Shown here one piece after another: positions 12,556-15,019 of a DNA stretch of 15,900 bases. This DNA is from a virus (lineage: Duplodnaviria > Heunggongvirae > Uroviricota > Caudoviricetes). Within the stretch, counting starts at the first letter, position 1. Each line of letters begins with the position of its first letter. The position numbers and the translations under genes were made by a program. The DNA is taken from IMG/VR virus record IMGVR_UViG_2695420863_000009; one strand, 5' to 3'. The notes below the pieces were generated by a model. That model was given only the letters and a program-made list of their open reading frames with translations. It was not told the DNA's origin and did not search any database.

Positions 12556-13032
12556 GGTGAGGTAGAGTGCGTGCGCCGGACACGGATAAGAATCCGGCAC
12601 TGACAGTTTACTGAAAAGGATATATCCCTGAAAAGTCAGGGCATAACACGAAAGCGCCCGGCGAAGTTAGTCTCTCTGTATAGGTCGTCGTTAAATTTAA
12701 TTCGATCGTGCGCTTCCGGTTGTGGCAATCCGCGAAATGGCGCGGCGGTAAGTATGGCGGGGTTATTCCTTCCCCGTTGAGGACACCGGGTTGTCAGGTT
12801 GACCATACGCTTAAGTGACAACCCCGCTGCAACGCCCTCTGTTATCAATTTTCTGGTGACGTTTGGCGGTATCAGTTTTACTCCGTGACTGCTCTGCCGC
12901 CCTTTTTAAAGTGAATTTTGTGATGCGGTGAATGCGGCTGAGCGCACGCGGAACAGTTAAAACCAAAAACAGTGTTATGGGGGGATTCTCTGTATCCGGC
13001 GTTAATTGTTAACTGGTTAACGTCACCTGGAG
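12556..13032 (+). repeat. repeat copy 1: structured leader + dicF + dicB 5'-UTR segment
   Basis: About 90% identical to 14489-15019 and identical to 15575-15869 over the shared part. Ends at an N-run. Confidence 0.8.
12850..12902 (+). ncRNA. dicF: DicF-like sRNA, copy 1
   Basis: TTTCTGGTGACGTTTGGCGGTATCAGTTTTACTCCGTGACTGCTCTGCCGCCC followed by TTTTT; matches the 53-nt E. coli DicF as I recall it. Intrinsic terminator at the 3' end. Confidence 0.75.
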
Positions 13033-13045
13033 NNNNNNNNNNNGT
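13033..13045. other. assembly gap (13 N)
   Basis: Run of N directly after repeat copy 1. Confidence 0.95.
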
Positions 13046-13152
13046 CGGTTTTTTTGTGCCATAACTTCTGCAAATCAGCTGTATAACTAATATTTTTCCC
13101 TTGAAAAAACATTTACATAGTTACCAAAACAAAAATATCATACGCCATACTG

Positions 13153-13181
13153 TTGACTTAAAATATCCGCGTTACTAATAT
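13153..13181 (+). promoter_or_regulatory. putative strong sigma70 promoter
   Basis: TTGACT, 17-bp spacer, TAATAT, with an AT-rich upstream region, about 70 nt upstream of the ydfA-like ATG. No GTAAC-N4-GTTAC operator was seen nearby. Confidence 0.4.
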
Positions 13182-13252
13182 TTCTATCAAGAACAGCACG
13201 GCGCTGTAGGTTTTAGTTCCGCCACCCGGCGTTAAGGGGAAATGAGGTCAGC

Positions 13253-13408
13253 ATGGATACTATCGAGCTTGGCAACAACGAATCTCTGGTGTACGGCGTG
13301 TTTCCCAACCAGGACGGCACATTCACCGCGATGACGTATACCAAAAGCAAAACGTTTAAAACCGAAAATGGTGCCCGTCGCTGGCTGGAAAGAAACTCAG
13401 GTGAGTGA
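13253..13408 (+). CDS. ydfA: YdfA-family small protein (DUF1391), copy 2
   Basis: 51 aa, MDTIELGNNESLVYGVFPNQDGTFTAMTYTKSKTFKTENGARRWLERNSGE; same SD as copy 1. Below the track cut-off. Confidence 0.75.
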   Translation: MDTIELGNNESLVYGVFPNQDGTFTAMTYTKSKTFKTENGARRWLERNSGE

Positions 13409-13409
13409 T

Positions 13410-13538
13410 ATGGATTTCGACACAATCATGGAAAAGGCTTACGAAGAATACTTCGATGGTCTTGCCGAAGGCGAAGAAGCTCTCAGCTTCAGTGAATTTA
13501 AACAGGCGCTTTCCAGTTCGGGAAAATCTAACGGCTGA
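13410..13538 (+). CDS. ydfB: YdfB-like small acidic protein
   Basis: 42 aa, MDFDTIMEKAYEEYFDGLAEGEEALSFSEFKQALSSSGKSNG; starts 1 nt after the ydfA stop. Matches my recollection of YdfB/YdaG. Confidence 0.6.
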   Translation: MDFDTIMEKAYEEYFDGLAEGEEALSFSEFKQALSSSGKSNG

Positions 13539-13567
13539 TAAGCGAAACAGCACCGCGAGGAATCAGT

Positions 13568-13786
13568 ATGCAGAAACGAGAACCCGTCATCATCGCGCCA
13601 GACTATACCGATGATGAACTTTATGAGTGGATGCGCCAGAAAATTAATGCAGTGCAGGATCTGAAATGGGCCAATGAAGCCAGGACTAAGCAGGCTGAAA
13701 ATCTGTCCGCTCTGGAGCAGGATATCACCAGGCTGGAAAAAGCAGCGGCATTAAGCATTGCCAGAATGGTTACATACCCACGTTAA
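13568..13786 (+). CDS. ydfC: YdfC-like protein
   Basis: 72 aa with SD aggaa; MQKREPVIIAPDYTDDELYEWMRQKINAVQDLKWANEAR… matches my recollection of YdfC. Confidence 0.65.
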   Translation: MQKREPVIIAPDYTDDELYEWMRQKINAVQDLKWANEARTKQAENLSALEQDITRLEKAAALSIARMVTYPR

Positions 13787-13808
13787 TAGCTAACCAACGA
13801 GGCTAATA

Positions 13809-14210
13809 ATGGAATTTAAAGATTTACCAATGCCATTCCAGGAAATGGCAGCGAATGTGATTCGCTCTCAACTGGCGACTCTTGACCTGAGTACTGTAGA
13901 AAAGGAAACCATCGATACTATATCCGGTAACGTGCGTCGTGCCTTTATAGGTCTGTATGAAGAGAAGCGCCTATTCGGCGGACAGAATTCGCCTGAAAAC
14001 AAGAATCAAGCAAATGATGAGAAGCTGAAACACATTATCGCCTTACTTTTGGAAGACGCAAAACGTCTACAGCAACTGGAACCAAATGCAGGCACAGAGG
14101 CCCGCATTTGGATTGCCATGAAATCACTCAAATGTGAAAGCAGTGATTATTTCAAAACAACAATTAAAACTACTCAACTTTCGGGAGAGCTACTGAAGAA
14201 ATTGCCATAA
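13809..14210 (+). CDS. hypothetical protein, variant B (same N-terminal 52 aa as the 12171 gene, different C-terminus)
   Basis: 133 aa. The N-terminal 52 aa are nearly identical to variant A (3 substitutions); the C-terminal 80 aa are unrelated. The 3' end overlaps the convergent minus-strand gene by about 40 nt. Confidence 0.5.
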   Translation: MEFKDLPMPFQEMAANVIRSQLATLDLSTVEKETIDTISGNVRRAFIGLYEEKRLFGGQNSPENKNQANDEKLKHIIALLLEDAKRLQQLEPNAGTEARIWIAMKSLKCESSDYFKTTIKTTQLSGELLKKLP

Positions 14211-14448
14211 GAGCATGGTCTTTCTCTTGTTCTGCAAGATGAGCATTAATACCTGGTATGGTTTTTTCAAATTTATCTATCTGTTGAATAACAACTTCGC
14301 GGTATACGTTTGTTTTTGTACCACCAAGCGCAGCCGTTAATGCAGAAAGCATATTTAGTATCATATCAGTGCGATATGAAAGAATCCTGATAGCTTCATC
14401 TTGTTCTTCAATAATAGATTGCAGGGCCTCAATTTGCTTTTTATCCAT
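14170..14448 (-). CDS. hypothetical protein, convergent with variant B
   Basis: 92 aa from the ATG at 14448 with strong SD aggagg. The sequence looks helical/coiled-coil (MDKKQIEALQSIIEEQDEAIRIL…). It is the only minus-strand gene inside the plus-strand operon. Confidence 0.45.
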   Translation of the reverse strand: MDKKQIEALQSIIEEQDEAIRILSYRTDMILNMLSALTAALGGTKTNVYREVVIQQIDKFEKTIPGINAHLAEQEKDHALMAISSVALPKVE

Positions 14449-14488
14449 TTCACCCTCCTGAGGGTTGGTAATTAAGGAGTTCTCCACT

Positions 14489-15019
14489 GGTCAGGTGGAG
14501 TGCGTGCGCCGGACACGGGTGAGCATCCGGCACTGACAGTTTACTGAAAGGATATGTCCCTGAAAAGTCAGGGCATAACGCGAAAGCGCACGGCGAAATT
14601 GGTCTCTCTGTACGGTGTCGTTAAATTTAGTTCGACCGTGCGCTTCCGGTTGTGGCACTCCGCGAAATGGCGCGGCGGTAAGTATGGCTGGGGTTTCCTC
14701 CATTGCTCCAGAAAATGCACCGGGTTGTCAGGTTGACCATACGCTTAAGTGACAACCCCGCTACAACGCCCTCTGTTATCAATTTTCTGGTGACATTTGG
14801 CGGTATCAGTTTTACTCCGTGACTGCTCTGCCGCCCTTTTTAAAGTGAATTTTGTGATGCGGTGAATGCGGCTATGCGCACGCGGAACAGTTAAAGCAGT
14901 AAGGCGGTATTTTACGGGCGTAACGAGCATCAACTAACCCGGCGTTAATTGTTAACTGGTTAACGTCACCTGGAGGCACCAGGCACTGCATCACAAAATT
15001 CATTGTTGAGGACGCGATA
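14489..15019 (+). repeat. repeat copy 2: structured leader + dicF + dicB 5'-UTR
   Basis: Aligns with copy 1 across its length with scattered substitutions and a small insertion. Confidence 0.8.
14784..14836 (+). ncRNA. dicF: DicF-like sRNA, copy 2 (G-to-A variant)
   Basis: Same 53 nt as copy 1 except A at position 12 (GTGACATTTGG vs GTGACGTTTGG); followed by TTTTT. Confidence 0.75.

Follow-up and report, generated by a model that had tools for sequence, protein, structure and literature searches.

What the roughly 300 nucleotides (nt) upstream of each dicF gene do is the question raised by a 15,900-nt stretch of Caudoviricetes DNA (IMG/VR record IMGVR_UViG_2695420863_000009; the whole stretch is called the window here), in which an Rfam search with RF00039 places three genes for the small RNA (sRNA) DicF on the + strand, at 12851-12902, 14785-14836 and 15644-15695. 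The original prediction, made from the letters of the window, described a structured non-coding leader before dicF and saw in it either a processing platform that releases DicF from the polycistronic transcript or a separate cis-regulatory or stable RNA element. Two full leader copies are present with exactly the boundaries it gave, 12556-12849 and 14489-14783; the alignment between them begins at these starts, holds ~90% identity and runs on into DicF, and the two are evidently recent paralogues. The leader of the third dicF copy keeps only its last ~65 nt (the 3′ third), cut by the N-gap 15551-15574. As a processing platform for DicF the leader was correctly recognized, although this is already published experimental knowledge (Ragunathan 2023, PMC10448788). 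As a separate element, the prediction gains partial support: the last ~115 nt before the DicF spacer form a discrete covarying domain that also stands alone in other phage contexts (e.g. P1/P7). This domain is a conserved, strand-specific, covarying fold of four to five helices, probably locked, in our model, by a 6-base-pair (bp) pseudoknot. The parts of the leader that carry the argument are as follows.

12639-12726, + strand: copy 1 stem S0, with 5′ arm 12639-12666, variable apical insert 12667-12699 and 3′ arm 12700-12726; RNAduplex energy -26.7 kcal/mol.
12719-12833, + strand: copy 1 domain, closed by helix P0 (12719-12726/12826-12833); covariance-model score 166 bits.
12730-12745, + strand: hairpin 3 of the original prediction (ccgcg/cgcgg), which is copy 1 helix P1 (12730-12734/12741-12745).
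12746-12749/12785-12788, + strand: copy 1 helix P2a.
12758-12762/12772-12776, + strand: copy 1 helix P2, from per-sequence folding.
12789-12823, + strand: hairpin 4 of the original prediction (ggttgtca/tgacaacc), which is copy 1 helix P3 (12789-12796/12816-12823), with a 19-nt loop.
12752-12757 with 12803-12808, + strand: copy 1 candidate pseudoknot GUAUGG/CCAUAC.
12834-12849, + strand: copy 1 spacer, 16 nt, A/U-rich and single-stranded, ending at the RNase E-dependent DicF 5′ end (Rfam; PMC10448788).
12850-12902, + strand: DicF copy 1, seed and intrinsic terminator; RF00039, 76.7 bits.
14571-14656, + strand: copy 2 stem S0, with 5′ arm 14571-14598 and 3′ arm 14630-14656; RNAduplex energy -34.3 kcal/mol.
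14649-14767, + strand: copy 2 domain, closed by P0 (14649-14656/14760-14767); covariance-model score 145.5 bits.
14660-14664/14671-14675, + strand: copy 2 P1.
14676-14679/14719-14722, + strand: copy 2 P2a.
14688-14694/14705-14711, + strand: copy 2 P2 by folding, unlike copy 1 in sequence and compensating.
14723-14730/14750-14757, + strand: copy 2 P3.
14682-14687 with 14737-14742, + strand: copy 2 candidate pseudoknot.
14784-14836, + strand: DicF copy 2; RF00039, 77 bits.
15575-15695, + strand: copy 3 remnant, with the P2a 3′ strand, P3, the P0 3′ strand and the spacer at 15575-15642 and DicF at 15643-15695; covariance-model score 64 bits.

The case for the fold rests on homologues from phage records, IMG/VR contigs, species-representative genomes and a few metagenome contigs; the pattern used for the metagenome scan was too GC-rich, and true matches among the metagenome loci then searched were limited to L201, L209 and L216. 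In a MAFFT alignment of 33 sequences, the pairs of P0, P1, P3 and the pseudoknot are 95.2% paired and nine of them have changed on both sides, values reached by none of 500 shuffles, with slid registers giving 28-55%. When P2a is added, 96.7% of 2063 cells are paired among 68 distinct model-aligned sequences and ten pairs have changed on both sides (0/500 shuffles at the observed values; slid registers 25-56%; the P1/P7 rows have no alignment in P0). Both-side changes occur at six pairs of P3, as in Izhakiella (GGGUAACCA/UGGUUACCC), and a U-A pair of P2a has been replaced by C-G twice, once in the P7 lineage and once in a lambdoid lineage unrelated to it. Because both alignment methods misalign P2, this helix was folded sequence by sequence; folding gave at least six different stems with compensating sequences, all of them capped by a pyrimidine-rich loop (UCCUU, CUCCU). 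The candidate pseudoknot shows one compensated change (phage P1, GCAUGG/CCAUGC) together with G-U variants. G-U pairs are frequent in P0, so the structure is that of an RNA read from the + strand. The domain measures ~100-125 nt, and its unpaired nucleotides in J1/2 and in the 19-nt P3 loop, which the original prediction had counted as 18 nt, are very highly conserved. Within Qin-type loci, P3 with its loop and the spacer are less variable than the DicF sequence, a difference that ascertainment inflates.

Three points tell against the model as drawn. RNAalifold, run on the MAFFT alignment, returned another consensus with almost no covariation and did not recover the model; from that result only the CGGU/ACCG helix (P2a) was kept, which the second lineage later supported. 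The patterns used to search for homologues had already fixed four of the six pseudoknot pairs, and the pair counts for the 68 sequences rest on an alignment fitted to the model (alignment A3).

The same homologues bear on whether the region is instead a decayed or unannotated protein gene, or is conserved without function through recent prophage duplication. Several phage records annotate minus-strand hypothetical proteins over the region, one such annotated open reading frame (ORF) belongs to a PHROG family of unknown function, and the window copies are recent paralogues. Against this, no frame on either strand is open throughout the 67 distinct homologues, whose length differences are not multiples of 3; the compensatory changes and G-U pairs are strand-specific, and homologues occur in several genera. 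Two 70-amino-acid minus-strand ORFs match no Pfam or PHROG family. The absence of a credible ORF had been seen correctly in the window. We give a coding or functionless origin almost no weight.

Known RNA families do not account for the leader either. The DicF family model (RF00039, a 52-nt covariance model) matches the three dicF sites only, and leader, S0 and domain have no Rfam match at the gathering threshold or at E<=10 in the window, or at E<=0.01 in six related loci. A tRNA- or tmRNA-like element was considered and rejected, as ARAGORN finds no gene in 12400-15900 and Rfam gives no match.

The identity of the element as a transcript comes from Escherichia coli K-12. According to PMC10448788, which cites Faubladier 1990 for both statements, a 190-nt DicF species owes its 5′ end to RNase III, and that of the 53-nt DicF depends on RNase E; the same paper reports that no internal promoter was found for K-12 DicF. 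The RNase III cut in K-12 lies ~137 nt upstream of DicF. The 190-nt precursor sequence in Fig. S1 of PMC10448788 is the same element as the window leader and contains P0-P3 and DicF, and the K-12-derived strain RP437 matches the entire 347-nt query at 91%. Judged by this identity with the mapped K-12 precursor, the window element is the DicF precursor, a maturation substrate of RNase III and RNase E, and what is known of the Qin dicBF precursor, from its RNase III 5′ end to its release by RNase E, applies to it directly. The terms secondary structure, stem-loop, terminator and read-through are all absent from the main text of PMC10448788. What is added here to knowledge of the K-12 precursor is S0, the helices, the candidate pseudoknot and the occurrence of the domain outside dicF loci; the domain is not described in the databases or literature searched, though the fold may have been described earlier.

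Stem S0, which is absent from the hairpins listed in the original prediction, is a 24-27-bp duplex with small internal loops. RNAduplex predicts it in every lineage examined, at -17 to -44 kcal/mol, from differing sequences whose arms compensate by lineage (AAGCGCACGG/CCGUGCGCUU versus GAUGAGAGCAUU/AGUGCUCUCUUC versus GGUAAGAGCAUUCC/GGAAUGCUCUUUCC). If 190 nt are counted upstream from the DicF 3′ end, the RNase III cut falls at ~12713-12718, within the S0 3′ strand; the cleavage itself is shown experimentally in K-12, and we infer its placement in S0 from the correspondence in length and sequence. The last 8 nt of the S0 3′ arm (GUUGUGGC) double as the 5′ strand of P0, which pairs with GCUGCAAC at 12826-12833 to close the domain. 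A long-range helix between the conserved GUGCUCUC upstream of P0 and a segment after the terminator was rejected, each strand pairing with a nearer partner (S0 and S2, respectively).

Long imperfect duplexes in pL transcripts are familiar from the early-left RNA of lambda, where RNase III sites in the N leader and in sib are cut and the cut changes the fate of the RNA. In contrast to these sites, cleavage of S0 releases an sRNA precursor, and a strand of S0 doubles as a strand of a domain helix. Two side observations concern S0. Its apical insert carries one or two hairpins with loops resembling the tRNA T-arm (GGUUCAAUUCC, GGUUCGAUUCC) in the F1055 (L004 2372-2508), Erwinia (L180 4406-4542) and Izhakiella (L182 2247-2383) lineages. 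Outside Qin, the 3′ strands of S0 and S2 read GUGCUCUCUUC and GGUGCUCUUUUCUG (e.g. L004 ~2490-2500 and ~2770-2790), which we take to resemble the boxA consensus GCUCUUUAACAA of Nus-factor antitermination sites.

Taken with the K-12 data, the arrangement of S0, domain and spacer leads us to lean, with moderate confidence, towards a leader that would be the upstream half of a conserved phage cassette excising an sRNA from the early-left (dicB-type) operon transcript, with S0 as the RNase III site and the domain as the structured 5′ body of the 190-nt RNA, tuning its maturation or lifetime. S0 would form first and sequester the 5′ strand of P0; cleavage by RNase III would free this strand and allow P0 to close the domain; the folded domain would leave only the 16-nt A/U-rich spacer exposed, and RNase E would cut there to give the 53-nt DicF. 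Because the fold would leave only the spacer exposed to RNase E, the domain would set the rate at which the precursor is converted as well as its lifetime. A role of this kind in precursor maturation or stability is the one we favour for the domain in this model. Three considerations limit it. Rac-type cassettes work without the domain, so it cannot be essential for maturation. The P1/P7 domain lies at the 5′ end of a transcript and has no S0, so the release of P0 by S0 cannot be a general step. Finally, the invariant unpaired nucleotides of J1/2 and the P3 loop suggest a specific partner, which a passive cap leaves unexplained.

The distribution of the element shows how its parts are combined. 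The leader occurs in ~81% of complete E. coli genomes (4421/5426) and is annotated in none, and the domain recurs in prophages of Escherichia, Citrobacter, Erwinia, Izhakiella, Trabulsiella and Salmonella. The P1-P3 core is found without DicF in cdtI, Stx2c, 2H10 and F1055-type phages and in Citrobacter, Trabulsiella, Erwinia, Izhakiella and Serratia prophages, where it occupies the pL-leader position directly after the repressor gene; in P1/P7 it directly follows the C1-controlled ban promoter and precedes a terminator. The P1 genome record does carry a "dicF-like region" (AF234172, 68791-68892), a note of similarity only, which overlaps the P3 half of the domain and the terminator that follows; the true homology comprises P1-P3 (68739-68833 of the record) and excludes the DicF seed. 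An intrinsic terminator always lies 15-60 nt downstream of the domain. By script, a hairpin with a U-run follows it in 77 of 80 distinct downstream sequences, the other three being evident DicF variants. The hairpin is GC-rich, and at least ten unrelated seed/terminator sequences stand behind the domain.

The converse arrangement also exists. S0, seed, terminator and S2 are kept and P1-P3 are absent in the Rac-type phages Rac-SA53, 666R9 and 683R6, which have no N gene, and in the N-carrying Stx phages phiSTEC1589-Stx1c and 75/02 Stx. A 5-nt loop between the P0 strands takes the place of the domain in phiSTEC1589-Stx1c and the Rac-type phages, so P0 is a real and sharp module boundary; in 75/02 Stx, all that remains of the domain before the terminator is the 3′ portion of P3 and the 3′ strand of P0. 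Since the Rac-type and Stx cassettes lack it, the domain is an optional insertion, required neither for the cassette nor for downstream kil/recE expression. As for the N gene, phages with an intact domain lack it and the N-carrying Stx phages lack the domain, whereas the N-less Rac-type phages lack the domain as well.

Several further observations belong to these loci. In 75/02 Stx (Shigella phage, KF766125.2; L007 1064-1336, + strand), an unannotated ORF carries GTAASRRRAHRAELQ, an arginine-rich motif, and belongs by its match (E = 2.4e-21) with the PHROG family "anti-termination protein N-like". E. coli- or P1-type sequence at ~98-100% identity appears in records assigned to Actinobacillus, Aeromonas, Veillonella, Collinsella and Bacillota, namely Actinobacillus phage vB_Apl-pPE4 (L003), Aeromonas phage AP1 (MT713136) and the metagenome-assembled contigs L163, L164 and L171; such identity suggests host mis-assignment, chimeric assembly or contamination. 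The DicF-like cassette of pPE4 is tandemly duplicated. In several non-E. coli lineages (L004 ~2640-2700; L172, L180, L182, L157), the terminator after the domain is a hairpin of 60-70 nt whose stem hides the start of a tiny ORF, with both the Shine-Dalgarno sequence and the start codon inside it (AGGAG...AUGUUCUACCG); a Shine-Dalgarno sequence of this kind is complementary to the pyrimidine-rich loop of P2.

This placement before terminators raises the alternative that P1-P3 are a cis-acting, protein-independent antiterminator RNA, which would modify RNA polymerase and let transcription pass the DicF-type terminator, continuing into dicB, kil, exoVIII and xis or, in P1, into the tRNAs and ban. 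The constant 15-60 nt between domain and terminator, inside an early operon that needs downstream expression, fits such a function, as does the position of the P1/P7 domain between promoter and terminator. In cdtI, 2H10, F1055 and pPE4 the domain follows the repressor in the pL-leader position, no N-like gene separating the two, and phage Tritos has the order CI-ydfABC-leader-DicF-dicB-ydfD-exoVIII-xis-int without N. The invariant unpaired nucleotides are compatible with contact to protein or polymerase, and the size of ~100-125 nt is near that of the annotated putL of HK639 (126 nt).

HK022 putL/putR and HK639 putL are, like the domain, cis RNAs of early operons in N-less phages, placed after a repressor-controlled promoter and before terminators. 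Beyond this the two differ in sequence and structure: put RNAs consist of two or three serial stem-loops (HK639 putL, tested at L010 34187-34312, folds into three serial hairpins without a junction), whereas the domain is predicted to be a closed junction with a candidate pseudoknot. Homology to put was rejected, as the covariance model with default filters has no match at E<=10 in HK639, including its annotated putL, or in HK022 22000-33000. The domain is absent from some N-less relatives: Rac-SA53, 666R9 and 683R6 have the same type of terminator cassette before kil/recE without it, so the domain is not required for read-through in these Rac-type phages. In addition, the terminated ydfABC-dicF transcript is abundant in K-12 (PMC10448788). 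Antitermination by P1-P3 is weakened by the Rac-type cassettes and the lack of likeness to put, and we consider it unlikely. A broader form of the idea is that the pseudoknotted P1-P2a-P2-P3 domain is a new class of portable phage RNA acting on the transcription or decay machinery, for example a protein-independent antiterminator structurally unrelated to put that would serve N-less lambdoid early operons and the P1 ban operon; we put it forward as a speculation of low probability.

The modularity that separates the domain from DicF may also be read to mean that the domain is the functional RNA itself, an RNA of ~120-137 nt left after the RNase III and RNase E cuts that would accumulate and bind a protein of the host or the phage, or act in trans, with the DicF-type sRNA a mere neighbour. 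The P1-P3 core is common to P1/P7 and lambdoid cassettes with unrelated seeds and terminators, its junction and loop sequences are nearly invariant, its P2 loop is anti-Shine-Dalgarno-like, and the likely processing sites S0 and S2 flank the module. The sources searched hold no report of expression of a ~120-137-nt fragment, however, and its 3′ end would be an unprotected 16-nt tail. We regard an independent RNA as improbable.

A junction with a pseudoknot upstream of a terminator is likewise the typical layout of an aptamer and expression platform, and the domain might be a riboswitch-like sensor whose ligand-binding aptamer controls the terminator by alternative pairing. Complementarity between the domain and the terminator 5′ arm argues otherwise: duplex energies are no better than those of shuffled sequences, and the best partner segment changes position from lineage to lineage. 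Spacer and terminator are freely exchanged, and Rfam gives no match at E<=10. A riboswitch or attenuator was rejected as a candidate on these pairing results and is, in our judgement, highly improbable.

Upstream of S0 lies a segment on which the original prediction had leaned. Its features are the following.

12556-12638, + strand: copy 1 variable 5′ segment with hairpins 1 and 2; homology between the copies begins here.
12575-12598, + strand (copy 2: 14508-14531): hairpin 1, gccgga/tccggc.
12627-12642, + strand (copy 2: 14558-14573): hairpin 2, ccctga/tcaggg.
14489-14570, + strand: copy 2 variable 5′ segment, with hairpin 1 at 14508-14531 and hairpin 2 at 14558-14573.

All four hairpins named in the original prediction are present, and covariation separates them: hairpins 3 and 4 belong to the covarying multi-helix domain and hairpins 1 and 2 find no support. 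Differences confined to the loop of hairpin 1 had been taken as a sign of selection on RNA structure, with four differences counted. There are three (cacggATAAGAa versus cacggGTGAGCa), and since the copies are recent paralogues, intact 6-bp arms are expected ~28% of the time (0.9^12) at ~10% divergence. No compensatory change in hairpin 1 occurs across 54 distinct upstream variants, and its outer pair is broken in K-12 itself. In its commonest allele hairpin 2 is reduced to 4 bp, an unrelated 5′ segment is present in a substantial minority of the distinct upstream variants, and the single-sequence folding z-scores of -1.26 (copy 1) and -3.51 (copy 2) are counted as not above chance. By these comparisons the 5′ segment with hairpins 1 and 2 is poorly constrained. 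Hairpin 2 (CCCUGAAAAGUCAGGG) presumably resembles the 5′ half of lambda boxB (GCCCUGAAAAAGGGC) and could be a nut-site relic.

The operon around the leader is a Qin-type dicB operon in the order repressor, ydfA-like genes, leader, dicF, dicB, with dicB starting at 15020, downstream of DicF copy 2. Runs of N at 13033-13043 and 15551-15574 show that three dicB-operon segments have been scaffolded together in the window. A promoter-like site at 13153-13181 belongs to copy 2 alone. Elsewhere in the window lies a sok antitoxin RNA (5512-5686, - strand, 117 bits), and in phage cdtI the C4 antisense RNA and isrK adjoin the antirepressor gene (locus L002 40-228, - strand).

Between the DicF terminator and dicB, a second structured region (14834-15052; also 12903-13032, cut by the gap, and L186 3034-3223) contains one feature that may bear on processing.

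14845-15003, + strand: copy 2 stem S2, 14845-14864 pairing with 14984-15003 over ~20 bp after the terminator; STnc100, 31.1 bits.

This distant relative of STnc100 (RF02076) sits downstream of DicF and outside the leader. It scores 31.1 bits here and 43.8 bits in Rac-SA53, both below the gathering score of 47. A 3′ processing route for DicF by RNase III is cited in PMC6582626. A full STnc100 (138 bits) adjoins three tRNA genes at 270-460 of the window (- strand), and phage P1 has a weak match after the ban-operon tRNAs. Instead of being an independent sRNA, STnc100 may serve phages as a processing structure.

Among bacterial sRNAs, DicF has been known for longer than most, and pathogenic E. 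coli carry it in multiple copies. The processing that removes 137 nt from its precursor is known, with no fold or function described for the removed piece in the sources searched. Most of this piece is a covarying, probably pseudoknotted module that lambdoid prophages exchange with plasmid prophages of the P1 type and that is found joined to different seed/terminator cassettes. The domain offers a concrete target for mutagenesis, for which the 5-nt loop of the Rac-type phages provides the natural domain-less form, and it raises the question whether it controls the yield of the sRNA, read-through into the division inhibitors dicB and kil, or something else. If the domain did act on RNA polymerase, it would add a further structural class to the few protein-independent antiterminator RNAs described so far.

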